Shown here one piece after another: positions 14,127 to 64,000 of a DNA stretch of 64,000 bases. The number at the start of each line of letters is the position of its first letter. Position 1 is the first letter of the stretch. The notes beneath the pieces are model-generated. The model saw only the letters and a program-made list of their open reading frames with translations. It made no database searches and was not told the DNA's origin. Origin of the DNA: Bigelowiella natans CCMP2755. Lineage: Eukaryota > Protista > Cercozoa. The DNA lies in the NCBI GenBank assembly GCA_000320545.1, contig ADNK01000063.1, positions 11,843-75,842 on the forward strand. The letters run 5' to 3'. Made by a program: the position numbers and the translations under genes.

Positions 14127-16501
14127 TGTTACGTTTGCCACTACTGGTAGGATCGTATTCTCTACCACAGTCTACCGGGACTTAAAGTTGTGAGCAAAAA
14201 CTACTACAGTGCTCCAAATGTATTTGGAAGGTGGTTATAGACAACAGCAGCAACAACAACGATATTATCTCAAAAATGAATATATGTGTTTTGCTGTCTA
14301 AATCGATTGAAATTGTATGCATCTAGTTCCACATGCTTAGTTCTACTACTACTGATACTACTAGTACTACGTAAGTAATACAATAACACTTCTTCCCCTT
14401 CTTCTTCTTCTTCTTCTTCTTCTTCTTCTTCTATCACAGTGACCACAGACCTGTGGCTAGCGTGTTCGAGTTCGTGCCTTTTCCAAGTGCTGATGTACTT
14501 CAACCGACCCTCGAGAGGTGTTACTACTACCACCACTACTACTACTATAGTTGTCCTACCGATGATAGCTTTAGTCGAATAATGGTAGTAGTGGTAGAAG
14601 TAGTAGTAGTACCTTTGGTGCCAACATTGGTAGAAACATCTATCCCAACTAGTTATAATTGAGAGAGGAGCAATACTACCACAACAACAACAATGATAAT
14701 AATAAATTAATTGTGATAATCATCATCACATTATCCTGATCTCGCCATCTTCATCGTTAGGCGGTGCAAGGCCATGATGGCTGAAGTATCAGTGAGCAAT
14801 ATGACAATTAAGGTCGTCTACCATTCAATGTGTGGTTTCCTCTTACTTTCAGTGTTTCAACAACAACAACAACAAAGAGATAAAAATAATATTACACATC
14901 GTTCAAAAAAAGTACATATTTTGAGAAGGAGACAAATGTTATATTATAGAGGGAAGGAGAGAGAGTATACCTTGAAGAAGTATCATTGTACTGTACAAGA
15001 CCAACCTATCTTCCAGATGATTGTTCGTGATTTATGTTCTATTATTTATGTGTGTGTGGGTGGTGTGCTTTACCGTGTGTTAATAAACAGCTTGACATGG
15101 AGTCCGAAGATATGAAAGATAAGGAAATATCAGAAATGACTAGCAGTTTGACTGTACTTTCAAGTGTAGATTCACCTCTACAATGGTTTGCTATGATGCA
15201 AAAGTCTAAGGTCGTTAGAACGATATGCTACTGCGAAAAGATTATGTTGATGATGATGATGATGTCGCACGGTTAAACATACATAAATTCTTGTACATAT
15301 TTTATAACCACAGAGTCCTACTTCTTCAATCTCATCCTCGCACTGGGCTGATAACTTATCCGAAAAAAGGTCAGGGAATGATCATAGCTGTTTCTCACTT
15401 ACTGTACTGTTTTCTGGTATATGATGATGATGATAATGATTATGGCGGTATTTGTCCAATAATTCTCTTCTTCAACAGCACCGATCTGCTAATACAAGCA
15501 ACCTTTCAGTCTGAAGTACTTGAAGCAAAGGTCTATTCTAATATGCACACGGAAAGGAGCCAGGGACTCCGAAACATCGTCATCATACTTGAAATGTTCT
15601 TGGCATAGTTAGACACGCCACAATTAAGACGTTGAGCGATAGTGTTAATCACTTATAAAATATTTTGTGGATTATTTATTACTACCCCATGGTTATTGTG
15701 TATATTATAGGTCACTGAAACGAGTAAGACGTTCAAGAAGGAGGAGAACAAATGGAATTTTGGGTATATTATAGACGATGTCAAGAGGAGTCAAATTGAG
15801 TTTCTCGTTGTTCGTATTCATCTAATAAGGCTGAGTATATTTTAATTCACTATATCCTTTATTTAGTGTTGTAAAAATGCATCCATATCTGGTTTCTGAG
15901 CGGCACATCCATCGGCACTTTGTCAACGTTGCTCTTACCTTGCAAAATGCAGATGCATCGCAACAGATGAGTTTGGGTATGTCACGTGAGAAAGGAACAA
16001 AAAAAAAGAAAAATGAAAAATTCGATTTTGTGTATAGATGATCCGCTCAAAGTATGTATGTGCCTTAACAAGCATGATTCTTCTCTTAAGTGGCTGCTCT
16101 ATCAATCCATGAATTCAGGATATGCTGTGATTCCACTGCTTGGAACCTGTAAGTCAACAAGGACCCTCGAAGTTGATGTTATGCTTGCAGGGACTAGAGT
16201 AGCAACGGTGAGTGAGCTGCAACATGTTCTTTCTATCTATCTTCGTGAAAATCAATCTCCACTGACGCATGATGTTCTTTTCAACTGTTAGTTAAGTGCG
16301 GAAGTACGGTCCGCTTTACGCAAGAGAGTAGGGTACAAGCCAACCATTGCTAATCCAATATTCGGAATTAGAGCACAGAGAGGGAAGCTTAGCTTAGGCC
16401 GTATGCCCTCTTCTATGGGTGCTATAAACGAAAATGTAGACAATTCGTCGGATGAAGAACTGGAAAGAGCTCCTTCCTCACAGAGAACCAACTCCACATA
16501 G
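10350..16501 (+). CDS. Inositol polyphosphate 5-phosphatase with three N-terminal PH-like repeats
   Basis: Motifs FIGTWNV, DIYAIGLQEC, NKGGVAV, FVTCHLAA, VFWFGDLNYR, GPTYRF, PSWT|DRILY and S|DHRPV in GT-AG-linked exons; stop TAG at 16499-16501. Confidence 0.93.
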
Positions 16502-17003
16502 AAATCTTCACCACTTCACCACTCTGATGTGTAAATTAGCAGCAAACATCGACATGTTTCTTTGTTGACAAAGTGGTTGTGTTCCCTGGCTTATGCCCCT
16601 AACCTCCCCAATATGTTCACATGACGAAACAAAAACACGGAGTGCATGCAGTAAAACCAATTCTTGAGTCAAAACCTGTATTTGATTCAATAGCACACTC
16701 TACATGTGCAGGCATTCATTCAATGCATGAAATGCACGACATAAATGCAGCATGAGCGATACGACATCATTCGAAATCAATGGAGTTCTGATATCTAACA
16801 TCTATCGGACACATAGCAATGCGAGGGCACTTTATTCCGCCGCGCGCCACCGCGGAATTTGTTTCGATCATGCTACCTTGAAGATTGGCATGTGGAGCAT
16901 GACGGAAAAAGTGGTGGGGTGTCGATCCAGCTACACATGTACTAGCTGTGCGCGCTCATCAGCAGTGCGCATTGAACAAGCTAGCCATCCAGCCATGGTT
17001 TTG

Positions 17004-17213
17004 GAGCTGGGCACAAATGCTTGAAAACAAATATGTTTGCAAAAACATTTGAACAAACATAAATCAAATACTTGTTTCAAGCGCTCTCGCGCAAGTGTTT
17101 GAACAAATCAAACAATGGTTTGCAGGTGTTTGGTGTTTGCAGACATTTTTTTGTTTGTTCAAATGCATTTGCAAACATTTTTGTTTTCAAGTGTGCCATG
17201 CGATGCCCAGCTC
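17004..17213. mobile_element. MITE family A, near-palindromic copy
   Basis: Terminal inverted repeats GAGCTGGGCA...TGCCCAGCTC plus ~50-bp inverted arms (cttgaaaacaaatatgtttgcaaa / tttgcaaacatttttgttttcaag); no ORF. Confidence 0.8.
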
Positions 17214-18019
17214 TGGCGCTCTGCTAGCTGGCATGTGCAATGCGTGGTGCGTGGCGCGACAAGTGTGGATTGCGCACGGACGATCGATCACAGGCTGGGC
17301 AGCGCGTGCGCATTGCAGTTGCGATGCACAGCACACCTCAGACATGTGCGTCTGTCACGTAATTGCAACGCCACTTTCAGTTCTGCAAAAAATCTTGCTT
17401 GCGAACTTCAGCAGCAGAGCATGCGGCATGCGGTGCACGCGGCTCATTGGCTTGGAACTGCGCTTGGCTTGCATCGTGCCAGCTGGCTGGCATCACTGAT
17501 GTGTGTGTTGTCAAGTGCATGAAATTGCATTTTCATTTTGCAACATTGCCAAATTGCGCTGCTTGAACGTGGAATGTGTGAGCATGTGAGCATGAGTGTG
17601 ACAAAGTGCAGCTGCAGCTCACACGAGCTCCGAGATGCGTGCGCCAAGTTGCAAAGTGCAGGCGGCCCTTGCATGAGCGACACACCCACGCAATTCTGGA
17701 ATTGCACAATCGGCCACGCATGACACACAAGCATGCAAGGTCAAAGCACTTGCGCACAAACGTGCAAAGCTGCAGCAACATTGTGATGGACACGTCGTGC
17801 AATGTGCAACTTGCTAGCTTGTGCACAACAACGTGACTGTGTCCACAATGAGCACGTCCGCAAATCAGCAACAGACATGTCATGTGATGCACATCTCACG
17901 TGCAACATGACTTTGTCCATTGTTCATCATTGCGATGCTCAAGTGTGTGATGAGTGTGTGAGCACGAGTGTGACAAGTGACGAAGTGCAACACAACGCAC
18001 AAATTGTTTCAATGCATGA

Positions 18020-18255
18020 CCATTCGAAAACGTTTCAAATTGTTTGCAAACAATTCCACAGGAAAACGTTTGCAAACAATTTCCGCAAGAAAAATGTTTG
18101 CAAACACGTTTGCAAATGCCTTTTCTTGTTCGAACATTGTTTGAACAAACCAAGTGCTGGTTTCGCGACACGTGGGCATTGTTTGTTCAAATTGGACACT
18201 TGTTTGGAAAAAACAAAAGTGTTTCCAAACAAAAAAAATTGTTTGTGCCCAGCTC
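18020..18255. mobile_element. MITE family A-related partial copy
   Basis: tttgcaaac subrepeats ending in TGCCCAGCTC; 18181-18254 is the approximate reverse complement of 63636-63708. Confidence 0.7.
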
Positions 18256-18618
18256 CACATGGTGTGCCTGTCAGCAGGGGCAGTGCCAGCAGATCGAGAG
18301 TGCTGCTGCATGTCATCGCAAGGCAAACACACGTCATTCTTCGCTCAGTGACAATCACAATGACAATGATGCGCGCGGATGCAGCTGGACACAGCAGAGC
18401 AGCTAGCGACACACAGTCTTGCATGCAACCACATCTGGACATGCGCATGCATGCGTCTAGATGTGGACAGCATGGTCTTGCAAGTGCGTGGTGCGCGTGC
18501 TGGCGTGTCTGCACATGCGCATCCTGTGGTCGGTCATGACCACCAAGCGTGTGCTTGCATTTGTGATGCAGTTCAGTTTTGGTAGCAGTGTGTTAGATCA
18601 TGCTGGGGGGACAAAATG

Positions 18619-18913
18619 AGTTAGCAAGTTCATCATTTTGGCCCCGCTTGGGCCAGTGCGAAAGCAGTTAGCAAGTTTTGGCATTTTGGCCCCGCTTGGG
18701 CCAGTGCGACATGGAAAAAGTTGGGTTGCAAAAGGGAACTTTTGCAGCACAAGTCAGCGAAGTGATGTTGGGAAAAAAATGTTGTTTTTTCAATCCAAAA
18801 ACAGCGTGATGTGATGTGTTCAACTGAGCTAGTTGAAGCAAAGTGAAACGCACACGCAAAAGTCAAAAGACCCGCGTGCGAGCGGTGAAGTCAAAAGACC
18901 CGCGTGCGAGCGG
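18619..18913. repeat. Two short tandem duplications (~47 bp and 28 bp period)
   Basis: agttagcaagtt...cattttggccccgcttgggccagtgcga at 18619 and 18666; aagtcaaaagacccgcgtgcgagcgg at 18860 and 18888. Confidence 0.9.
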
Positions 18914-19515
18914 CAATGTCCTCTTGGGAGCTTGTTTTGGCATGCATGCTCAAGCTCCTCACAATGCATTTTCATCACAAGGGTTTCAGTGTTTTGTTTT
19001 CAATGAGCATTGATTGCATCAACGTGCAATGCAAGCATCAGCCAGCAGCGCATCTGTTGGCTGATTGCACATCCATGCCAGCATGGCTAGCAGCGCAGAT
19101 GGGTGTCAGAGCTGTGGATCGAGTGACTGACCGACATCGTCATGGCGGTCACCAGATCACACGTGAATTTTCACACGTTCTCATTTTTCGAATGAATGGC
19201 GATTTTTGACACGCACCACAGCGCAACGTGCAAAAACACGTGCACGCGATGCGCGCGCGCGACATTGTTGCAGTTGAACGAATGCGTCCGCTTCGGCACG
19301 GCAGATGAATTTCATGTGGAATTTGGGAAAAAGAATTGTGCAAAAATTCCTACACATTCCATCTGGAACCGCAAACCTGCCGTGCCAGCGCGGTTTGAAC
19401 AAGGCTGTCTGACTGTGGGCAAAGTGAAAAAGCTAGCTAGTCAATTTTGCTGCCCATGCCACGTCAACAGAGAATGACCACTCATGTTGTTGTAGCTGCA
19501 CAGCATGCTTTGCAT

Positions 19516-19795
19516 CAGGGCGCCCCAGAGCTCAAGCAGGGGGGCGGAAATGAGGCGGGGTCCTGCGGCAAAGCAGGGTGCACTTTGTGCGCGGTGCAGA
19601 TTTCACTGATTTTCAGAAAAATGCTGTGCTTTGGCTTGGCAAAGTGTGGAACAGAAATGGCTCGCGCGCCAAGAGAAGCCATTTCCGCAGGTCCACTTCG
19701 GCCGGCGGCGCTCGGCAGGGCCTCACTAGCTCAGAGCGCCTGCGATTGCCGTTGCCGGAACCTAGCGCGCGCCCCCATTGAGCTCCAGGACGCCC
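19516..19795. mobile_element. MITE family B, full-length (~280 bp)
   Basis: Imperfect TIRs GGGCGCCCCAGAGCTCAA / TTGAGCTCCAGGACGCCC; internal sequence recurs inverted at 63708-63892. Confidence 0.8.
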
Positions 19796-20764
19796 ATCTA
19801 GCCATCACTAGATCAGACTTGCGCAGAGCTTGTGATGATGATGTCGCATCATGCATGCAGCTGCATGTGCATGCGCTAGCACGTACTAGAGCATGGCATG
19901 ATCGCATGATCGATGTCTAGATGTGTCTACATCTAGATGTTGCAATGTTGCTACGTGCGTGTCCACACATCTCTAGATCTAGACATCCATGGCGACATGT
20001 CATGCATGCACATCGTAACGCATCACAAACGCACATTCTAGCATTCCTAGATTCTGCAGTGCTAGAGTGTTGTGTGCTGTGTCCGCACAGCTCTAGCTAG
20101 AGCTAGACAGTCCTAGCAGATTAGAGTCCTAGAGTCCAATGGTCCACAATGGTGTCTCTTTGTGCAATCCTATAGCACGCATGCATAAGAGTTCGAGCTC
20201 TATGTTGAATCAACTTCCTGCATGATGCGGATTGCGTTGCGTTGCGTGCCGCCAAGCAATGAATGTGTGCGATGCGCCACACGCTACGCGCGCGCAAATA
20301 CACACACACACACACACACACACACGCGCGGCGCGCGCGCACAGTCTCTCACTATCACAACGGTAGATCATGGATATCAAGTATCAACAACGTGAATCCA
20401 AATGAGAAGTTCGTTTTGGAAGTATCAAGCATGCTCTTCATCTATTTCGATGCCTGATTCAGGACTAACTAATTGACCACGTGCAAAATCACCACTCGCT
20501 CTACCCGAGAGTTAACACTAATTGAAATCGTGACAGAAATTGTGCAAGTCGCACAAAACGTTGTGGATGTTAGAGACGGAATTGAACAAACAAATATAAT
20601 GGGTGTTTTTCATTACGCTGGTCCTACTCGCCCATTCCTCCTTCAGTAGCCGAGCATTAATATTGCTTCTTCTAGTGTTAACCTTCAATTGCTAGATCAT
20701 GTTTTAGTGTGAGGTGCAAAGTCCATGTATTTTGTGCCTCCTATTCATGATCTTCCAGTACGTG

Positions 20765-21717: not shown

Positions 21718-24182
21718 ATGTCGAAGGTCCAATTTTCATCATTTTCGAAAGATTGGAACGATGACCTTGTGTTTTCCCCAGGCTCCATCATCACTTAAGC
21801 AGTCTCACTCACCCTTAAAAATCAACAAACGAGGATGGGTTCTCCTATTTTTGACATTTTCATCATATATTTTGGAAATATGATTCATGCAAACATACAG
21901 CAGGGTAATAATAATAAGGGCTGCTATCCGGCAAGGCATACTTTCTTGGATATTCTGGATGCTCTGTCATTTGGACCCAACGAAGATGGTTTACTTTCTG
22001 ATTTTATTTGGGTGTAGTAGGAACATGACATAATCTCATATTATCAGATTCGAAAAATCGTGCAGAAAAGAGTAAAAGCAAGCTGGATGCTCAGTCTACC
22101 CTTCTTTCATCCGAGGATGATGCGTTTCAAGAATCTCCAAGTACTACCGAATCAAAGCTATGCAATCAAAACGAAACAATTAAACCCAACCCAATTCATT
22201 CAGGGTTTCTCCTCTCGGGATTAGAAACTCGATCAAGCCCATCATCAAGCAGCGCGTCAACAAAGTCCCTCGAGTCTCCTGGTGAAACACTTTGTATCTT
22301 GGTACCAATCTCAGCTCTAAATGCATAAAATATGTTTGGATTTGGATTTACAGAAGGAGGAAATCTTAATCCATGTGCTCCAAAGCTCAGCAATATCCAA
22401 AGACTTAGTGATGGACACGCACTAACTCTCTCTGAAGATATTGGAAGCAGCATGAGCCTAGACCAAAATCCTTATCATCCTCGTCAAGTACGCATAGGGA
22501 GGCCTCGCAAGCGAGCTGTTTCATGGAAACAACAGTTACCAGGACAATCCTATGCTCCACCACAGAACCGAGATAACAAAAGTAAGGAAAATTTAAGACC
22601 AAAAAGGAAAATGAGAAGAATCTTGTGCGAAATTGAGGTATTGACCATTAAGTCTTGTTCGTTTTGGGTTAATTAAACTTGGATTTTATTTTAGGGAGGC
22701 CAGTTCTTCGGAGCAAAAAGCTGTCCGAATAAATTATATAACCAATTTAGTGATTGTGAGAAGGGAAATTTAAAGAGTAAAAGGATAAAAGACTCTTCCA
22801 ATCGCCGTTCATTAGTAGCAGCAAAAACGCCTGCAAATTTTGACTGGATAGAAACATTCTCTCAAAAACTGGAGCCGCCGCAGGAGCAGCAGGAGGAGTC
22901 TTATCGAGAGTTGAAGCTTTGTCATTACTCCACAGCTTCCGATCTTACACATGAAAATAGTTATCAGAAGGAATATGCTCACATTAAATTTGGGCGAAGA
23001 TCGGTATCATCAATGCAAGCTATAGCAGAAGGGAAAACGAAATCCAACAATGGATTACCAAGAGAAATACGTCCGGCAGAACGAACACCATTACCATCAC
23101 CCCCACTAGTAGTTCTGAAACAATCTCAAAGCGATCCATATTCTTTATTAAAACATTCAAAAATGCAGAAGACAGCAATGCATAAAGAACGACAGTCAAT
23201 TATGAAACGCTCTCAAAGCGTAACATTAGCCGGGATGCAAGTAGACATGAACTCATCCACAACCCCCAAATTACCGGTTGTCAAGACAGATCATGAAGGC
23301 GTTCAGGTCTTGAGCCAATATCGTTGTATGTCATATTTGGAATCATTATAGAATCTAATTATAATTACTGATTTTCAAAGGCAATTTCTGCAAGAACTGT
23401 AGCTCAAATCCTAAAGGGAAAATTCTCCCATCTATTCGACAAAGTTATCTTGTGTGACGCTCGATATCCATATGAGTACAATGGAGGTAAGCTATAATCT
23501 TCTAGTTTTCTATACAACTAGATATTTTCCTGAATACATAGAGAGATTGTTTATTTTCTCAGGCCATATTCGGGGAGCTGTGTGCACAACATTACCTAGT
23601 TCATTGGATCGATTGCTGTTCAATAACACTGACATAATGAGTGTGAGTCTGACACATCAGTTTATCTACCCGTATCAAATATCTACTGCCAAGTTCTTAT
23701 GTTCTTTCTGTGGTTGTTGCTTGGTATTGATTGACTTGGAATGTCAGGATGATCCATGCAAAGTGTGTGTAGTAGCTCACTGCGAATTTAGTGCTAACCG
23801 TGGCCCCCGAGCTGTTCGTTACATTCGGAGAAAGGATAGAGACCTTCATGGAATTTCCAACTTTCCCAAACTCTACTATCCTGAACTTTACCTCATGAAG
23901 GGGGGCTATTTGGTAGGAATAACAGTGTTTCGACAACTTTACATTATTTTTGAGTATCTTTTCTTCGCAGGAATTTTACTCTCAGTTTCCAGAATTGTGT
24001 GAACCTCCCGGGCACCTACCCATGATTCATCCAATTTGGCGAGACAGCTGCAAGAGGTAAAAGTGGATTTCACACGTGACGGCAGCATGAATAACATTTT
24101 GAATGCCATTAGGTGGACGAAAGAAACACGAAAGCAGTGGGGTCTACTAAAACGACGCGGAGCAAGGCCAATTCGGGACTGA
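21718..24182 (+). CDS. CDC25: Cdc25 M-phase inducer phosphatase
   Basis: [10 protein letters not shown]|GHIRGA, catalytic [15 protein letters not shown] and [13 protein letters not shown]; long S/P-rich N-terminus; start approximate. Confidence 0.92.
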
Positions 24183-24980
24183 ATGCGTTGCATGACTTCC
24201 AAATCCAACAAGTGCCAACACGTCAAAGTGTTTCCAAGTTCAATTGAATTGTGAAATGTACCAGACGTTGCACAGAAAGAACACTTGCGGATTTGGTTCC
24301 GTCCGCTTGCATCACACGCGATGCGCATGTGGTGCTTCGATCGAAACAAGCATTCGGAATGCCAAAATGGCTAGCTGTGCGTGTGTGTCTCCATCCACCT
24401 TGCGCTGCGCTGACAACTCTCTCATCACCCGCTTCCGGCTAGCTGGCCACGCTGGCACGTTGCATCATGCATCCGATGCGCACACCGCTCTAGCTAGCGC
24501 TGGCTTCAGCAAGCGTTCACACACCTGCGTTTCAAGTTCATGCAGACCTTGCTAGCTTGGTTTGTTCGTCAGTCTAGCAGGAGTTGATGACGGATCAGCA
24601 GCCCCCATTCTAGCATTCCCTCTGATCCTGAGCAATGGCGACTTTGCAATGTGCAAATGTGCCAGCACCACGAATTTTCATTTTTTTTCACGCGGACTTC
24701 GACATTCGCTTCTCCGCACGCAAAGCATCCATCCTGAGCAAGAACTTCCTGATGGCCACGTCCACACGGAGATCAACGTCAGGGACAGCCGAGGGGGTGC
24801 CGAGCAAGACTCTGGTTTTGACAGAATCAGGGGCATCAAAAAATGAAGAGCAAGCAAGGAGGTGCAGGGCCGAAAGCTGCTCTGATGCCAGAACAGTTGT
24901 CGCAGTTGCAAAAGACAAACACAGAGCAATCAGTTTCACCTCCTTCAAAGAGGCTTTTTGTCCCAAATGGAGCAACTTTT
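24183..24980. other. TpA-depleted island directly after the Cdc25 stop
   Basis: Manual count for 24181-24980: 8 TA in 800 bp, 7 in CTAG. Confidence 0.85.
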
Positions 24981-25444
24981 TTTATGTCTTGATGCCAGAA
25001 AAGCAATCATTTTGAAAATTTCACTTTAAAGAATAGCCAGACACATGGCCTGTGAGACTGAATTTCCGTTGAGTACTCGTTGGTATTGCAGTTGACAATC
25101 TGACCGCACAGACAAAGGTAGGGGGGGGGGGGGTAGGCTTAGGGTTAGGGGAAGGTTCGGGTCCACATCCGTTCGACATTGTGAAGAAATATTTCTTTTC
25201 ATTCTTCATTGGGATTATGTCGCCACAGCTGTGTTCGCAGAATGCTCTTGCTGCCCTTCAACACTTCAACACATGAGTCTAATAGTCGTAGCATCGAGGC
25301 CAACCGTAGTATAGGCTGAGTTTCTACAACGGGAACATTGGCTCGATTTAATGGAACCGTTTGCCTTTACTCACATTTTCGTTGATCCGAGGCCTAGACT
25401 GATGGAAATGCTACTGCTGCTTGTATGGTCAGATTCGAACGAGA

Positions 25445-27380: not shown

Positions 27381-28202
27381 CTACTTACTGAGAATGTAGA
27401 TATTTTCTTTTTCTTGATTCTTTCCTCCCATGGCATACAGTATACGAAAGTCGTCGTCTAGGTACGTCATTCTCCACGTCCCAACCGCTTTCAATTCCTT
27501 TTCCTGCAGTGGAAACCCTAGTAATTCTAACCGGATATTTTTGAACTTAACTCTCCAAGTGCTGGACGACAGATTGTCCCATGTAGCTGAAAGTGTTCCT
27601 TTAAAAAATCCGTTTCCGAGACTGACTATGTTAAGATATTCATCCTTTCCTATATCAACATTTTGTGTGACATCTCCGACAAAAGGTCCGAATTTACCAG
27701 CAGATGAGCCGTCGTTAGTTGTATATAGCAATTTCCACTCCCCTTCAAGAAGGGAAGAGCTTGTCAATTTTCGGGTAGGATTAGCGCTTTCGAGCACTTT
27801 CACTATCTCTGCCACTTGCAGTCTTTTTTCTTGAGATGCCTGCACTCCATTCTGCGTGCCCTTTGTAGCTTTTCGAATGGACTCCTTCAGATCTTCAACA
27901 TCGACATTGGAGAACAAGTTTGGAGCTAGTAGAAAGGACGAAAACAACTTATTCAATGAAAAAGAAGGCGAAGACGCCTCAGTAGCTGATGATTTCAGCA
28001 GCATCGATGTAGATTGGGTACGCCTGTGAATCTTTCTAGGAAGCGGTATCCTCATAGCCATGTTGCCGTGATGCTTGCCGTTGTAACACGTATTCTTCTT
28101 TATTGAACGTAGAGTTGTCGGTAAGGTAGCGACGGGTTGCAGGTAGACTGCGAATACTAGCAAGACCTTTGAAATTCGATTTATATCACTGAACCCAGGC
28201 AT
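27381..28202 (-). CDS. PAP/fibrillin plastid lipid-associated protein with bipartite leader, intronless
   Basis: LESANPT, LLEGEWKLLYTT and MTYLDDDFRI motifs; N-terminal hydrophobic stretch followed by S/R/K-rich transit-like region. Confidence 0.9.
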   Translation of the reverse strand: MPGFSDINRISKVLLVFAVYLQPVATLPTTLRSIKKNTCYNGKHHGNMAMRIPLPRKIHRRTQSTSMLLKSSATEASSPSFSLNKLFSSFLLAPNLFSNVDVEDLKESIRKATKGTQNGVQASQEKRLQVAEIVKVLESANPTRKLTSSSLLEGEWKLLYTTNDGSSAGKFGPFVGDVTQNVDIGKDEYLNIVSLGNGFFKGTLSATWDNLSSSTWRVKFKNIRLELLGFPLQEKELKAVGTWRMTYLDDDFRILYAMGGKNQEKENIYILSK

Positions 28203-31530: not shown

Positions 31531-31849
31531 AGCAATCAAAAGCAGCAGCAGCAGTCTGATAGCTACTTATACCGCACATCTCAAATACTAGAACTTCGTT
31601 TTGATGATGCGATGCCGTCGCCTTTAGATCACCTTTATTGTTTATAGATTTGCATGCCATGTTCTGCTCAAACCTTTAACTGCTGAAATATAAGACTAGA
31701 TGAAAGCTGGCGCATATTGTAACACAGATGTAATGAATTAAATTCAATTTGTTCAATGGCCATCCTCATGTTGTGACGACGTCCTTTATTCGCACATCGT
31801 TGCCTGTATGTGATTCAAGACAGGTAACGTTTTATGTTTGTGCGTAATG

Positions 31850-33130
31850 GCGTGAGCATGTGTGGGAGAACATGCAACAGAGCCTTTATGGCTATATTCG
31901 TGCATGCGCGTACGAACATGTTGGCCACATGTGAACACATGTAGTTAGCACATATGTTCTTGTACCCACATGTGTGTGTGTACCTGCACCAAATAATTAT
32001 GATTAGCACATGTGTTCCATTGTTGTTTGTAGCACACATGATCCATTGATGCACATGCTAGCATGCACGTGTTGCGTGACATGCACATCTTCACAAATGT
32101 GCATACACATTTGTGCCATGTGATCATCTTTTCTGTCCGGGAGCGCATGGCGTGAGCACACGCATGCGCAATGCACTTCGTAATTTGCTGCACAGCAAAT
32201 TGAGAGAAAGGGCAGCGTGTTGGAGTGCTTTGCACTCAGCGCGCGAAGTGCTTGCTTGCAGTAGCCAGCGCCAACAGCAGAGAGATCTGCGGGCGTTTGC
32301 AGGCTGCGACAAGCACGCAGCAAGAGGCTGCGAGTGCAGGTGAATTCTGTGCCTGCGACAAGCACGTCGCCGCACATCACCGCATGCAGCTCCTTTGTGC
32401 CAGCAAAGGAAGCAAGCATGACTACCTGCCTCGCTAGCAGCACAATGCATCGCTACGTGATGCATGCAGTTTGGGCACTTTCCCCTAGCTAGCGTGATGT
32501 GTGTGACCTGCACTGCATGCATGCGCAATCAGGTCAACACCTTCAACACAGAATCCAAACAGACCACCGTCTGTCTGCCCCCTCTACTTGCTACTTTGCT
32601 ACTTGTTGTGCCTGCCTCTGCAACACTGCCCGCGCCTAATCTTCCAACAATGTGCATGCACATTTGTGCCATGTGCATGGAGCAGCCATGTTCTTGTGAG
32701 CACACACCAACATGAACTACTGTCCGATGAACTTGCATGTGTCCTAGGCAGGGCACACGAATGGAGCCTTTGTGGCCACTTTGCTAGATTGTGCGCCCCA
32801 AAAAGAACCGCGCGACACTCCATGCAGCATGGCGCACTTTCTGCGCCACATCGCATTCTCATGCATGCACGTGAAAGACTTCACAGCAGAAACGAACAAG
32901 CACGATTTGCAAGCGCTGTAGCCGCGCGCAGCCTTGCAGCTACCACATTGGGAATAATAGACACAGCAATACACAATATATATTACACATATAGTGTATT
33001 GCATGTACGTCTATCATGGGATGCCCACTGCAAAGATTCAATTCATTTATCACATCAGTACGTCTCACACTGCCTCTGATGCTAGTGTGGTGTGTGTGTC
33101 TAGCTACATGTGCACAGGGCACATGTACAT
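31850..33130. other. TpA-poor, TG/CA-rich island between convergent genes
   Basis: Core ~32030-32920 has few TA, several of them in CTAG; Cys/His-rich ORFs in all frames. Confidence 0.75.
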
Positions 33131-33204
33131 GCACATACACATATTTAGACACATGTATGTATGCGCATATGTACATACACTATGTGTGTAAACACACATA
33201 GCGT

Positions 33205-33623
33205 TTAATTGTGAATAGCAGCGCAATGGTTCTTGCCATGTACCATGACGCAACATTTAGGAGATTTGGCATGACTTCTTCTTCGTTCCGCTTTTCTGGG
33301 ATATAGGGATTCGGCGAAGTTTTCCAGAAGGAGAACGCTCCCAACACATCTCTTCGTTTTCTTTAAATTCATGTGGTGTATCATTCGACTCGCCATGCTG
33401 TCTGTATGTGATGACGATCAATGTCATGAGAATGAAGCATGAAGTTGTTGTGTGTACTTACTTGATTGTGCATCTAGGAGCACGACGCCTATACAACACG
33501 GTGTGGCTCACAGCCTATAGTTTATTATATAGGGAGGGGGGGGACAATCAAGGAGGAAAGAAGACGACGAGAGAGAGAGAAGGATATGGGTAGGTTAGAA
33601 ACATACTCTTTAACAGATATGAC

Positions 33624-43559: not shown

Positions 43560-44400
43560 CGCCGCTTGTAGAAGTGATACTTTCTATATGTATTCCCAGC
43601 TGCAGCACAACAGCTAGGCTACTACGTATACAGCAAAAGCAGAAGTGCTGCACTGCACCATGATGAAGTTTACGCTATGCTGCGGCGATTTCATTTTCAG
43701 ATGGCCCAAGCATGCACATATGCTAGAGGACTGTGAAAGTTTAGACGAATAAATGCCACATTGGAATGGACTGCATCGTGGACTCAGCTAGCTAGCGCCG
43801 TACGTCAGTCGTGTGCTGCATGCATGCGACATGCTATGTAGTATGTGAGACGGATGTGCATGATGATGTGATTATACATATTTTCAATGGTCATCCTAAT
43901 GTAGCGATCTAGCGATGCAAAGCAGCGGCTATGTGTCATGTCAGCTAGTCAGCATTTTGCTGCATGCACACTCACTGCATGATGCGCATGGAGACACCTA
44001 GACATGGCAGATGGTACGTGCACAGTACACGATGTGCATGATGCTTATGTATGCATGACACAAGCACACACTGTTAGACTGCGGTGTCTTGCAGCCGTCC
44101 TCATTCGAGCATCTTTTATAATTTTTATTTAGATCTCATCTCACCTCGTCATCTAAACGGACCCTAAATCCCATTACCACATTGATCACCGCTTCTCTGC
44201 TTTCATGCCTACCTGGCAGGCACAATGTTGATGACATGCTCGCAGCAACACGTAATTGCACGCACTTGCTACTGACAAATATTTGTAATGAAGCTAATAG
44301 AACATCCATGCTTACACGATGCTCAGCACCACAAGCAAGTGCAGCCCATCATCGACACAAAGAGCACGTAGTCGCCCATGAGGAGCGAAAACGCAACAGC
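43560..44400. other. Weaker TG/CA-rich, partly TpA-depleted zone between convergent genes
   Basis: gcatgc, gtgcac and gctagctagc motifs; more residual TA than in the strong islands. Confidence 0.5.
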
Positions 44401-49429: not shown

Positions 49430-50650
49430 TATTGTGCATGCAAGCTAGCACGTATGACGTATGATCACAACAATTGCAGTAGCGCATGCATGCATATGTG
49501 ATGCTGCTTCTGTACGTAGCCTAGTTTGTGAACACACATGTACTAGAAGCACACGTGTTCTGAAGCACACATGAGCCTTGCATGTTACATGTGTCCTAAA
49601 TAACAGATATCTTAAAGCGGGTACGCTCTATGTAGCCCTGTTAGGCTACATTTATGCTACATGTACGTATAGCTTTCTAGCTTTGCTCGATGTTCCCACG
49701 CTGCGCTAGACCCAAGCAAGTCATCTAGCATTATTAGTGCAGGCACATTTGTCTCTTATGAAATCTTAAACATGTGATTTTTTTTCTTATAAATGTGATG
49801 CATGACAAGCTAGAGAAAATCATAAAAGACGAGAGAAATAAACCACAAAAGTTCCCGGCGGCTGTGTTTTCAAATTCACTTTTTGATCATGCGTGGCCAC
49901 ACGCCTAGCTAGCTAGATTGCACCGAAATTGTCAGAATTTTCTGCCTTTTTTTGCTCTCCTAGATTTCATTTCACGCAATTCGCCCATTGGAATTCGTGG
50001 GCACATCACATCTTGTCCTTTGTTGCAAGTTGGCACCATGGCGGAGCAGTGGTATGTGCAGCGTGGCACACTTAAAACTTTAGAACTGCGGAGTTTGCTG
50101 GCACTGACCAGCCCTGCAATGCGCACGCAAATGTTGATGTGAACATGCATGCGTGCGGTGCAGATCTAGTGATCCCGTTAGGCCTGCAGTGCGTCTACGG
50201 CCGTCGCTAGGTCGGCATGCTTGATTTCCGTCTTAGTGTCATCATGCACGTGCTTGGCGTCTCATGGAAAGACACCATGTGTACCTCAATGAAGTAGTAG
50301 GCTAGGTCTCTATGCACACCTAAAGGTAGTGTGTAGGTCTCTATGGGCTGTTGCGCACATGCGTCATGTGCAGCGTGCACATTGCAATGTGTGACATTGT
50401 CATGTAAGACGGATGCGTTCACTGATTACATCCGTCTCACAATGTAGCTAGCCGCCCAGCGATCTACTCAGTACTGCCAGCAGATGTGCATGCATCGTCT
50501 GTAATGGCATGGTGCTCTGTGCTGGTGCAGCGCAGTGATATATGCAAATATGTCATGCGCATCGATTATATCGCATGCCATATCAGGCGGTCAATGCACC
50601 TTTCACTAGCTAGCAATTCAACGGTAGATACAATGCTGATAACGAGTTCA
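49430..50650. other. TG/CA-rich, partly TpA-depleted zone between convergent genes
   Basis: gcatgc-, cacatgt- and ctagctagctag-rich sequence between V-ATPase d and the GT-like gene. Confidence 0.55.
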
Positions 50651-50722
50651 GTGTGGTAGCACATCGATGCATCTTTATCATTACCTTACTGTTTTTATGT
50701 AACATCTATAGGCATACGTACA

Positions 50723-51974
50723 TCAGGAAGATGATTGAATATTATGCCATCCCAAGCTTGGCTGATTGGTATCGTAACTCACTAACCGATCCATCTCCAT
50801 GAATAGCATTAGGGGCATGAAGCTGCAACGCTAGAATTTGATACAGCTAGATACTGTTCTTCGTTCACGTCATAAACGGTGGAGAGGCAAGACTCAAGCG
50901 AAATCCGTCTCTGATCGAAATTGGGAACAAAACAACTCTTGAATATGGAAGGATCTACTGCTCAAATACATAGAGTTATAAACTATTCAGTAGACAATAT
51001 ACGGCAACAAACACAATATAAAAATATGCACACATATGTAATAGAGTACCAAAACTGTGGTCACATTTGTATGTGAACAGGTACAATTCTTATGGTATTA
51101 ATTACTTGATCTCGGCATAGCCATGTTGCTGAAGTTTCATTCTTTGAAGATCGCCGCACCTTTTCAAAACAATCCCTTAATAATGATATCCAGATCAACA
51201 TTACTGTTTCCTTTTGCTGCGGTTATTGCTAGTTATTTCAGGTTTTAAAAAGCGGCTTGATCTTACCGATATCGGCGTTTTACGGTCATAGTAGTAGAAA
51301 GCGCTGGGTAGAGTCAGAAGAGAGGAGAATTAGAAAGATCAAGTACATTTGCAGAGAAAGGACGATGAGAAATATTGCTGACGATCAAGTAGAACTTCTC
51401 CTCCTGGTGCTGCCCCTTCTACTACTCACCCTAAATCCTCGAATCCTTTTCGGAGGGCGTCCTGAACAAATGCATGCAAAGATCAAACAAGTTGCAGTTT
51501 CTTTGATGAAAAGGAGGGTTCTTTTGTGAATGTGGCTATTCTGCAAAAATTCACCATTTAATAAAACGCAATTCAAGGTTCGAGAATTAGCGCACACGAA
51601 TCACGTAAACTGTGTACAATCAAAGCTTAAACATGTGGCTTCAAACTTATTTTTGATATAGTACATGAATATTGTGAACGTGCGAAATCTTGCTGCTAAA
51701 CCCTTCATTATTTACGAACGAAATTTGACAAGTGACAACATTACGTACCTCTGGAAAATAAGCGTGATACCTATAGGCCGTTCATTATTTCATGCGTTGG
51801 TAGATCATGGAGTTAGACAAGTGTAAAAATTAAAAACTGCTATCCAAATATATACTCTTGCTTGTTTATGTTTACATCTTGAGCAACAATCAACAACAAC
51901 GAGCATGATAGGTGAACGTTGTCATCGGATTTAATATTCCTACTTGCAAATCTGATACGTGTTTTCTTCCGTCT

Positions 51975-53615: not shown

Positions 53616-53931
53616 CAGAGATGGAGAGAGGGAGAGTTAAATTTTCATTGCAATACTTTACTTGATCGGCAATAATAGGTCCTTCTCGGATACAGGAATA
53701 GGTCTAGGAGAAACGGTTGTGAAGTCTGCTTTAATACTTATTGGGAGAATTCTCTCTAACACCACCAGCTAATGTTGTGAAGTCTGCTTTAATACTTGTT
53801 GGGAGAATACTCTCTAACACCACCAGCTAATGTTGTGAAGTCTGCTTTAATACTTGTTGGGAGAATTCTCTCTACCTCTACGCCTTTCTCTCTCTTCATC
53901 TCTTTTAATATATTAATACATCATATAAAGC

Positions 53932-57079: not shown

Positions 57080-58260
57080 ATGAGTGCTTCGCATTCAGAA
57101 TGTCGGTTTTACTAGTTTCCGAAAATTCCTAGCTGGCGTAGAGCTCTCTCCGAACATGCATAGCATGGTGTGCTGCATGCGACCAAAAATTTTCAGAAAT
57201 GATTTCAAATTTCAAATTTTGAGGCCAATGCAATGTGCGTGTGGTGTGCGATCGATCCAGCGTAGTTCACTCTTTGGCGCACAGACCTGTCTGGAGCCGG
57301 AAGGTTCGTGTTCTATTGGAACACCGCATTCGATTGCATTACAAATTGATTCAATGTTGGAAACAAGAGCGAACAAACTTCCGCAAGCTTCTCTGCACGT
57401 GACTAGCTGAAGCGCACAAGAGACACGCATGTGCGTCAATAACAAATTTCAACCAAACTAGCAAATGCATGAACTAGTGAATGTGAGAAGCGTGCAACCA
57501 AGTCATCAGACAATGAAGTGCTTGCTAGCTTGCTTGCACTAGTGCAGTCTTGCACAGCGATGCCGCATGGTGGTGTGCAAATAAAGTGGTACCGGTCGTC
57601 TAGTCGTCATGATGCAGCCATTATAGCACAGTCAGTCGATGTGCGTCAAATCATCAGTCAAAGAATCTCCATGTCCACGAATTTGTGCAAGTTCACCGCA
57701 AACGCTGAATTTCTACATGACCGCGCAAAACAGTGAGGGCTGTCGTAGGGGTGCGCGAGTCGCGCCCTAGCTTACATGCGTGCCATAGTACATGACTTTC
57801 ATTCATTGCACGTTATTTGCATCAGAATTCAATTTGTCTAGTTGTGGTCGAGCGAATGATTATATGAGCTAATGATAGATGATCGAACAAATCTGCCTCG
57901 ATCCGCGCCTGCATGCAGGCGTGAGGGTCTGCACAACGCTTCGATTCAGCAACGTAACCACTCTAGCACTAGCACGCACAGCGCGAGCGAGCAGAAAAAA
58001 GTGGCCAAGAAGTGGTGCACCTCTAGTCCTGCAAAAAATGAGTTGGGCAATCAACCCGATGCCTTGGTCACCATACTGCGCTGCAGTTCATCCTGCTTGC
58101 TCATCGCAGATCGAATGCAAAACGTTCCGGACACGCTCACTCATCATTGGCAGACAATAAATGATGCCATGCATATGCATCCTAAGCTAGATCAACAGAA
58201 AGGAGATTGGCGGCCCAATCATAGCATGCGAATCCCTTAGATGACACATGTGTCGTCATG
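57080..58260. other. Partly TpA-depleted, TG/CA-rich island
   Basis: TA sparse and often in CTAG; overlapping Cys/His-rich ORFs. Confidence 0.6.
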
Positions 58261-58699
58261 TCATCTTTCCAATTCATTGTTTCATTTTAAATAATTCAAA
58301 GTTTTCATTTCATCAGCAATTCGTACACCAGAACTCAATTGGAGAAAAAATTGTTTCCATGCTTACTTTCAGTCGTGGACAATTTTGCATGATCTCCCTA
58401 AGACCTATAAAATATTCGATTAAGACACTGGGAAGTGGAACCAGAAGAAAGAAATTTCATGCAAAATAATGAGGCGAGTCAGATAGACTGTGCGCAATGA
58501 AATAACGTCATGGGATATCAGACGGCACTTCCTATTTACAGTCAGTGTCATCATTTTCTCTAAATTTTCAGTGAATTCTGTATTCCTACCTTATAATGCG
58601 CAGAATAACTTCAAGATTGCTGAAATATACAGCAAAGCAATTAATTCTACGAAACAAATGACAACCGATTTACATGTGCAAAATCAAGACACATCAGAC

Positions 58700-59025
58700 A
58701 GAACTCATTGAAGACAACGCCTGGCTTTGGCGTAGAGTTCGAGGTTTTGAAGCTCAGCTTCGATCGTACGGGGAAAGATATTCTTCATGTGTATTTATTA
58801 TGTGATAAATAACGATCTGTTCGCACCAAGGAATTAGGTTGTCGGAATCCTCATCAGATGATCTCTTACCTGCAACAGACACGCTAAGATATTTATATTT
58901 TTGAAAATCCATAACATAAACAAATCAAGGGTTGCTCAGATAGAACTCATTGAAGACAACGCCTGGCTTTGGCGTAGAGTTCGGGGTTTTGAAGCTCAGC
59001 TTCGATCGTACGGGGAAAGATATTC
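58700..59025. repeat. ~84-bp direct repeat, 242-bp spacing (possible duplicated exon)
   Basis: agaactcattgaagacaacgcctggctttggcgtagagttcg.ggttttgaagctcagcttcgatcgtacggggaaagatattc at 58700 and 58942. Confidence 0.9.
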
Positions 59026-59733
59026 ATCAATGCGTGTTTACTATCATCATCATAATCCATGTGATAGACAAACCAGAAGCTCATCTTTAGGGCTTGTATG
59101 GCACTGGGGGCTTCCATCTACAAATATAAACTATTTTACTAAAGCATGACAGGTTTCACTTGCACAGGAAAACGAGAAAACACTCAGAATTAAAAAGCTC
59201 GTTTTGGTATTCGTCACAAAATGTCCGCATTGGATATTAGAATTCATCATTGTGTTGATGCACTCAAATTAAGAAGGGATGGACCTATTACCTGTTTTAT
59301 TCATTAAGAGATGGCATTCTTGTCATTGTTTACGTGCCGAAGCTTGGTGGGGGCGGCGTTGGTGGCGGGTTTTGGTTGGGAAAATTGACAATATATTTCC
59401 CGAAATGTAGGTATTTTTCACAATGTTCTGTCACAATTTACCAATTTCACCTGAAATCGGGGGTTTAAGCCACCTTCGGAGACATGAAGCGCCGAAAAAT
59501 AAAGTTCATTTTTCACAAATTTAAAATAAAATAATTTCGTGGCAAACAGGTTCCCGCCCTCTGCAAAAATCGTCATTCAATTTGCACCAGAAGCTAGAAT
59601 CTAGGGCGTGGCACAACAGACTCGTCATTTTGTCTTGGAACTCTTTGCGACGCAGAAACTAAGTGTTCAAAAAATTGGATAGCCTCATTTTGAAAAGGAT
59701 AAGAAAGGGTTTAAAGTTTTCAGCTTACGCACC

Positions 59734-62700: not shown

Positions 62701-63258
62701 TTGGGAAAAGTCTTCGAAATGAATGACAAAACTCAAAATATCGTGCGTCCTCCAATTCCATACCACTCCGTGATGCAAAGAGGAAAGGTTTTTTCGTATT
62801 GCACTGTACATGCTGTGGCACTAATCAGCTTAAACGATCAAACAGGCTACCCCCATATTCGATGGCGAAATTTTGAAGGAATCAGGAATCTCAATGCCCA
62901 CTGTAAAAATGGTAAGCTCAAAATTACAAAAAGGATATTTGGCTAAACTGTGCAACTCAGGAGGAATTCTGCGAGGGAAAAGAAGCACACAATACCTATT
63001 TTGTGTACGATCATTCACAGGTCCAGAAGTTGTTCCACTCTCAAATGGAAATTACTGACTCTGCAAAATCATTCTAGGTTCTCCAGAAATACATGTGTGT
63101 GATTCACATTGACGACCCAAGAGTGAGAGATTTGGATCGCTGACATCTTTTCCATTTTGTGATGAACCCAATCTGTCGTCGATTGCCATCATACACGTAG
63201 AGAAATGGTCAATGTGCAGACAGTTGTCAACGGAATGTTTTCCGACGCATTTCTTTGA
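59734..63258 (+). CDS. Protein with four DEK-C domains fused to PARP regulatory and degenerate PARP catalytic domains
   Basis: Four I..IL.EGDL..LT.K.IR..LE...G.SL...K repeats in exon 1. Later exons FLKLLFDED, LATEFFKYMP, ENHKLLL, KQGIRFKPKECPTTG|NFGKG and VALGKVFEM...YHSV follow PARP1/2 order. Final exons uncertain. Confidence 0.8.
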
Positions 63259-63358
63259 GATTGTTGCCACCTTTGTTGCACATGCCATTGCATGTTGGCA
63301 CTCGTGTGCAGAAATGTGCCGCCCACACCACTGGAAATGAAGCATTGCTGATTGGAAC

Positions 63359-63397
<39 letters not shown>

Positions 63398-63630
63398 AAG
63401 CGCCGCCGGTCGCCATTTGCCGATCCTGCCAAGGATTGATTGACGTGCATGCTTGCAAAACGTCCGGCATCGCATTGCCAGGTTGCGCACAATTGCAGTG
63501 ACAATGCAACCATCGAACCTGAACTGGTGAACAACAATCCAACAAGTGCACCACAACGCCTGCAATCTGTCATTGAGCTCAAATCCAAACACGCAATCGT
63601 CTAGAACGTTGTCACGTGCAGGGGCAACTG

Positions 63631-63707
63631 GAGCTAGCTGGGCACAAACAATTTTTTTGTTTGGAAACGATTTTGTTTTTTCTGAACAAGCACTTCACTT
63701 GAACAAA
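63631..63707. mobile_element. MITE family A terminal fragment
   Basis: gagct(agct)gggcacaaacaattttttt...ttgaacaaa, inverted relative to 18181-18255. Confidence 0.75.
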
Positions 63708-63892
63708 CAGGGCGCCCCAGAGCTCAAGGGGAGCGGGTTTGCGGACACAGTGATCGCACGCGCCCTGCGGCCCTGCCGAGCGCCGCCGGCGGAAACTGAC
63801 ATGCGGAAATGGCTTCTCTTGGCGCGTTGCGCCATTTCCGCATTTCACCATGCCAAAACAGAGCATTTTTCTGCAATTCAGTGAAATCTGCA
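63708..63892. mobile_element. MITE family B copy, truncated toward the telomere
   Basis: Starts CAGGGCGCCCCAGAGCTCAA; body is the reverse complement of ~19595-19795; second TIR absent. Confidence 0.8.
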
Positions 63893-63921
63893 ATGGAAAC
63901 TTGCAAACTTCACTGCAACCA

Positions 63922-64000
63922 AGGGTTAGGGTTAGGGTTAGGGTTAGGGTTAGGGTTAGGGTTAGGGTTAGGGTTAGGGTTAGGGTTAGGGTTAGGGTTA
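63922..64000 (+). repeat. Telomeric repeat (TTAGGG)n
   Basis: About 13 perfect units to the window end, G-rich strand pointing outward. Confidence 0.97.

Follow-up and report, generated by a model that had tools for sequence, protein, structure and literature searches.

Probable scarring of non-coding hAT-like elements by a TpA mutator in Bigelowiella natans, with CTAG spared

In a mutation-accumulation study of Bigelowiella natans, 231 of 302 nuclear point mutations fell in two viral inserts, and nearly all of these were TpA→TpG or TpA→CpA changes (Mettrop et al., 10.64898/2026.01.13.699255). The de novo rate was ~6e-7 per site per generation, about 1000 times background; 124 TpA-poor clusters were mapped genome-wide, transposon domains were enriched in TpA-poor coding sequences, and an ADAT2-like deaminase was proposed as the agent, as a prediction only (10.64898/2026.01.13.699255). 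According to the available part of one source, TadA-type deaminases favour U or T preceding the edited A (PMC12296453). Non-autonomous hAT elements are described, in the available part of another, as having terminal inverted repeats of 10-25 bp and an 8-bp target-site duplication (PMC3942097). The TpA→TpG/CpA process is already described in B. natans, and the interpretation given in a preliminary description of the present locus is not new. Added here are non-coding hAT-like elements as targets and an exemption of CTAG, both modest and testable additions.

The window, that is, the whole stretch of 64,000 nucleotides that was analysed, has 41% G+C and many microsatellites. Its eukaryotic genes include those for a V-ATPase d subunit, a DEK-C protein, a CoA transferase and a HIT-like protein, and it is closed by a TTAGGG telomere, the repeat of which begins at 63922. 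A plastid fibrillin (27381-28202, minus strand), an identical copy of which is present in MMETSP, EukProt and JGI, had its best named relatives in Bigelowiella longifila (74% identity) and in an entry from Lotharella (66%). To judge from these relatives, the host of the window is a chlorarachniophyte.

The island under study, its repeats and their copies at 63 kb are as follows.

16851-20500, no strand: TpA-depleted, TG/CA-rich island with several non-coding repeats and single-copy stretches; edges set by a TG/CA scan.
16994-17001, plus strand: left 8-bp flank, likely target-site duplication (CATGGTTT), matching 18258-18265 at 7 of 8 positions.
17002-18257, plus strand: family-A element, compound and probably non-autonomous hAT-like, with 16-bp identical terminal inverted repeats, both TG inward.
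17002-17215, plus strand: 'MITE A' of the preliminary description, consisting of the left end and, further in, a decayed right end (reading CA inward at 17215-14 and lacking a flanking duplication).
18258-18265, plus strand: right 8-bp flank, likely target-site duplication (CATGGTGT), matching the left flank.
18516-19020, no strand: high-copy repeat of a third family inside the island; summed contig depth 3986-6029 against ~95 in single-copy bins, sequencing run X1.
19516-19797, plus strand: family-B element, bounded by terminal inverted repeats that read CCAG (19525-28) and, inward, CTGG (19788-85).
63629-63709, plus strand: fragment of a family-A end that reads TG inward and is joined to a copy of family B.
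63708-63921, plus strand: family-B-related copy running into the telomere, 74% identical to 19595-19795.

In the 1-kb windows starting at 17001, 18001 and 19001, rho (computed with strand-symmetric base frequencies) was 0.09, 0.10 and 0.33 for TA and 2.04, 1.75 and 1.63 for TG+CA, with CG at 0.76-0.90. Per kb, 17002-19520 contained 7.5 TA and the background 74.3. These three windows pass the cluster cut-offs of the preprint, and with a fourth at 63001 they make up the 4 of 64 windows that do. The targets in the island are multi-copy repeats with terminal inverted repeats, which fits mobile DNA.

For a mass balance, islands were set by TG/CA excess only, not by TA, which gave 10 segments (8925 nt after microsatellite masking) and a background of 51224 nt. 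Counts were confined to pyrimidine-purine steps, a class closed under transitions. TA accounted for 330/2669 of these steps in islands (12%) and 3725/12548 in the background (30%), TG+CA for 1929/2669 (72%) and 7160/12548 (57%), and CG for 410/2669 (15%) and 1663/12548 (13%); rho CG was 0.80 in islands and 0.78 in the background. Since the loss of TA (17 points) is about equal to the gain of TG+CA (15 points) and CG was not lost, TA, not CG, supplied the TG and CA. Simulated TA conversion of the background gave a rho of 0.12 for TA, 0.58 for CG and 1.64 for TG/CA, near the island values (0.09, 0.82 and 2.04 observed in 17001-18000), and simulated CpG decay gave 0.75, 0.10 and 1.44, unlike them. 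Purine/pyrimidine alternation was 0.30 in islands against 0.245 in the background; transitions cannot create extra alternation, and the background is therefore an imperfect stand-in for the island ancestor.

The depletion extends beyond the repeats. Three bins at single-copy depth (17809-17909, 18314-18515 and 19122-19222) together hold 3 TA in ~400 nt, all of them in CTAG, and at the left edge non-CTAG TA fades over ~400 nt (10, 6, 3, 1 and 0 per 200 nt from 16600). The depleted single-copy bins and the graded edge indicate that the process needs no present-day close duplicate. Other islands poor in TA or rich in TG/CA, and varying in depth, were seen at 24100-25000, 31650-33350, 43600-44300, 49850-50750, 57080-58260 and 63000-63750; except for the 63 kb copies they have no similarity to family A or B, and no Pfam domain was found in them. 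The stretch 33050-33200 has the look of an alternating, TA-rich tract that was only half converted. Just past the 24 kb island, at the internal position 25119-25160, there are a G run and three or four hexamers of telomere-like sequence. Local direct duplications at 58694-59044 and 53716-53881 (109 nt at 94% and 50 nt at 92%, respectively) are outside the islands and have kept TA.

When the TA share was sorted by flanking bases, it was lower in islands than in the background in nine classes (ratio 0.21-0.67) and higher only in C..G, where it was 64/119 in islands and 148/412 in the background (ratio 1.5, p=6e-4; 47/100, p=0.05, when the CTAG-rich segment 19751-20500 is left out). CTAG was seen 64 times in islands with 13.2 expected from island dinucleotides, and 148 times in the background with 171 expected. 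In 16851-19650 the TA share in C..G was 10/36 against 13/760. Sparing of CTAG in the window is firm. A net gain of CTAG in islands is borderline, and is due in part to the CTAG-dense segment 19751-20500. A low-complexity stretch dense in CTAG occupies 19800-20150 at the right edge of the island (17 CTAG in 19751-20500).

Which flank protects, the 5' C or the 3' G, could not be read from the products at asymmetric sites, which were not significant, and paralog columns point both ways. A preference for a pyrimidine 3' of the edited A was considered on the basis of TGY/TGR ratios of 1.3-3.0 in 10/10 island segments against 1.02; it was rejected as evidence on the enzyme, since control cores deviate equally and the extra purine/pyrimidine alternation explains the ratio. 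The CG share was raised in some island flanks (G..C, 0.24 against 0.14; C..C/G..G, 0.19 against 0.10), as might follow from a further, slower step of CA→CG or TG→CG. The literature searched yielded no account of the CTAG rule or of a second system of this kind. The main text of Mettrop et al. is without the words 'CTAG', 'MITE', 'hAT', 'context' and 'trinucleotide'; its Fig. 2B motif and Table S2 could show a flank rule.

The inward dinucleotides of the four family-A ends are TG (17002-03), CA (17215-14), TG (18257-56) and TG (63629-30), so that TG or CA was confirmed at 4/4 of the ends (17002, 17215, 18257, 63629) for which it had been claimed; by itself this is weak, since TG+CA make up ~24% of dinucleotides in the core island. 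The end at 63629 has a 4-nt insertion inside the terminal repeat. The span 17002-17215, described earlier as MITE A, is not the whole insertion: no duplication was found at 17215, and the outer 8-bp flanks bracket 17002-18257 (P=3.8e-4 for one comparison of flanks, with three end pairs compared). Paralog contigs link family-A ends directly, 17037 to 18178 or 17191 to 18240; a further contig crosses 17215, being continuous from 17119 to 17610. A Tc1/mariner origin with duplication of TA, which had been offered as an option, was rejected on the 8-bp duplication, which sits outside the terminal dinucleotide. Judged by ends and flanks, from which the superfamily was assigned, family A is likely a hAT-type element.

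None of 114 island reading frames scanned (21 + 93, of 120 in total) reached a Pfam cut-off for any domain, and no transposase or viral domain was found among them. A search of metagenomes for the family-A end returned 18 loci, all chance matches with nothing similar beyond the motif, and the literature searched, in the parts available, held no report of chlorarachniophyte MITEs. The 9-mer preceding the 63629 end (63619-63627) recurs 18 nt beyond the 18257 end (18275-18282), by chance or as part of a shared neighbouring repeat.

Other copies of the elements were looked for in sequencing data. Twenty public DNA runs, all of one organism, contain 83-90% of the sampled words of 16500-20500. Four of the 24 listed runs were compared over 16900-19900 at 80% likeness (40 of 367 variant rows listed), and two over 18170-18272 (all 32 variant rows, and 6 of 14 loose-end rows listed). 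In run X1 the single-copy depth is ~95 and the family-A right end stands at ~20x. Paralog counts are unphased (TA minus CG), and the copies share ancestry. The columns that bear on the direction of change are the following.

17018-17019, plus strand: the left end has TG, and the ends at 18257 and 63629 have CA when read inward; paralogs about even at 18240-41 (1031.5 against 1031.3).
18158-18159, plus strand: TG here, TA in CTAG context in most paralogs (G>A depth 1503.5/1900, 10 contigs, X1).
18193-18194, plus strand: counter-example, TG here, CG in ~7 of 14 copies' depth and CA in five (T>C in 12 contigs, G>A in 5, depth 1499.8).
18205-18206, plus strand: the ttcCA/ttcTG column of the preliminary description; 10 contigs carry CA, ~2 copies TG and one TA, and CG is not in excess.
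18256-18257, plus strand: last two bases of the right end, reading CA in the window and in 7 paralog contigs; 6 contigs are interrupted directly ahead of this position, with a consensus that opens with TA (flank agreement 0.51; 6 of 14 loose-end rows listed).

Reciprocal TG/CA differences between the copies at 18.2 and 63.6 kb, as originally claimed, were found at 18205-06 and 18197-98 (75-nt alignment, 84% identity, E 6e-13). The pair that had led the argument, TGcttgaaaac against CActtgaaaac, did not hold up in that form: it falls on a 5-6 nt indel of the arm alignment, and its CA may belong to another column. A cleaner reciprocal pair at that column is TG at 17018-19 against CA (inward) at 18241-40 and in the 63.6 kb copy. 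The TA said to survive in aaaTActtg is present at 17069-70 (17002-17200 has two more TAs outside CTAG), but it lies in an internal sub-repeat and belongs to a different column.

At 18205-06 in X1, T>C reached 917.7 (10 contigs) and G>A 989.2 (11 contigs) of 1166.4, the gap being one contig's depth; the lone TA was seen in X1 and X10 (one sample) and was not evident in X12 or in the raw reads of X24. Position 18230-31, beside an indel, leans to TA by about one copy. None of the variant rows fell at 18197-98, where two clipped contigs terminate in TG. CG was in excess by roughly one contig at 18220-21 and, among the 40 of 367 rows listed, at 18155-56; among the same rows none gave T>C at 18158. 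The five fully listed TG/CA columns divide into one mostly CG, one slightly CG, one neutral and two leaning to TA by about one copy each. The check suggested in the preliminary description, whether other copies read TA or CG at such columns, thus gave mixed results, with CG clear at 18193-94 only and TA, not CG, at the terminus. Because 18193-94 is CG in ~7 of 14 copies, a reciprocal TG/CA column alone is no proof of a TA ancestor. TA conversion dominates, with mixed support from the columns, although some of the reciprocal columns trace back to CG or took a second hit. The five X1 contig pieces listed for the island copy of the window itself had 0 other letters, and almost no editable TA remains in that copy. 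In ChIP run X24 the depth in single-copy island bins was 7-12, which is uninformative.

In family B the claimed difference between terminal inverted repeats is present, with CCAG at 19525-28 and in the 63.7 kb copy, and CTGG (inward) at 19788-85. As an example of TA decay the pair serves less well, its C..G flanks being the spared context and its column not being among the paralog rows listed. No convincing target-site duplication was found at the ends of family B. The telomere begins inside the family-B-related copy at 63708-63921, and a paralog contig matching family B has ~11x single-copy depth in X1, which suggests a segment common to several chromosome ends. The repeat at 18516-19020 stands at roughly 40-60x single-copy depth and has short internal tandem duplications at 18620-18700 and 18860-18915.

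Ordinary CpG decay would trace the TG and CA to deaminated CG, methylated in silenced transposons, and leave the shortage of TA to a separate cause. It would account for 18193-94, where CG in about half of the copies is accompanied by CA and TG derivatives, and for the single CG copies at 18155-56 and 18220-21; CCGG is scarce throughout (6/119 in islands, 33/412 in the background), so that the CCAG/CTGG of family B could derive from CCGG. Among the 40 of 367 variant rows listed, 6/22 C>T/G>A rows are in CG, which is near the ~4 expected if CG is represented in proportion to its frequency among core-island steps that end in G. However, CG is not depleted (15% against 13% of pyrimidine-purine steps), TA is kept at the terminus in paralogs, and CpG decay lowers GC and leaves TA at ~0.75 in simulation, whereas the islands gain GC and lose TA. 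The literature searched, as far as its texts were available, held no report of methylation in B. natans. CpG decay probably holds for a few columns; as the general cause it is highly improbable. An inherited composition is likewise improbable: the families would have been TA-poor and TG/CA-rich before insertion, the reciprocal columns being ordinary transitions fixed in subfamily founders. The alternation of the island must indeed predate any transition process, and the paralogs, which are not independent copies, show transitions in all contexts. Yet the depletion is common to several unrelated repeats and to the single-copy DNA that separates them, non-CTAG TA declines across ~400 nt at the left edge, paralogs have TA where the window copy has TG/CA, and TpA→TpG/CpA has been measured de novo in B. 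natans (10.64898/2026.01.13.699255).

The same direction, TA→TG/CA, might also be reached through damage to or modification of thymine instead of deamination of adenine, a possible but unlikely route. Thymine oxidized to hydroxymethyl- or formyl-uracil mispairs with G. Since TpA is a palindrome, T→C in one strand is recorded exactly as A→G in the other; neither the paralog columns nor the step counts tell the two routes apart, and the deaminase of the preprint is itself a prediction only. On the other side, the preference of TadA-type enzymes for U/T before the edited A, as given in the available part of the source (PMC12296453), fits TpA without extra assumptions, and an ADAT2-like candidate is present in B. 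natans (10.64898/2026.01.13.699255).

The host TpA mutator most likely scarred these hAT-like elements and their surroundings, and we infer that the process is the one described in the preprint. The original proposal that TA was ancestral and was converted on either strand stands as the main cause, by mass balance, simulation and the TA of paralogs, but not for those columns that have a CG history. Deamination of A to inosine in TpA would yield TG when it occurs on one strand and CA when it occurs on the other. Targeting would be by silent chromatin domains, not by pairing of duplicates, and a 5' C together with a 3' G would hinder the mutator, leaving CTAG largely untouched; a minority of the reciprocal TG/CA columns would come from CG instead. 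CTAG may also accumulate, since a C→T change from CCAG or CTGG would never be reversed there. Rewriting of the terminus from TA to TG or CA may cripple the mobility of the transposon. We judge the chances about evenly balanced that the mutator is a genome defence that marks whole silenced domains, non-coding transposons and unique DNA included, rewrites their termini and exempts CTAG on both strands.

Its reach into non-coding DNA transposons is seen directly in the window, where the preprint only suggested it, and an A/T→G/C 'reverse RIP' is an unusual form of genome defence. The CTAG rule, if true, would be a fingerprint of the enzyme, usable for screening candidate deaminases, or the sign of a protecting mark. 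For reciprocal TG/CA columns in these genomes, neither CpG decay nor TA decay can be assumed without a column-by-column check.

Among known systems, CpG decay of methylated transposons gives identical reciprocal TG/CA columns and fits 18193-94, but it needs loss of CG and falling GC, and the islands show neither. Family A resembles hAT non-autonomous elements and MITEs in its short terminal inverted repeats, its 8-bp duplication and its internally deleted copies that have both ends in common. The termini of hAT elements start with TA or CA; unlike these, most ends in the window begin with TG, a start that may be explained by conversion of TA. Fungal RIP is also regional and scars repeats on both strands by dinucleotide-specific transitions, but it changes C→T, raises TA and needs duplication, whereas in the island TA is lost and single-copy bins are equally depleted (10.64898/2026.01.13.699255, for part of the comparison). 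The system of Mettrop et al. shares with the island the TpA→TpG/CpA change on both strands, the TpA-poor clusters rich in CpA+TpG and the involvement of single-copy DNA; its targets are giant-virus and virophage inserts, and those found here are hAT-like elements, short and non-coding, together with the intervening DNA.
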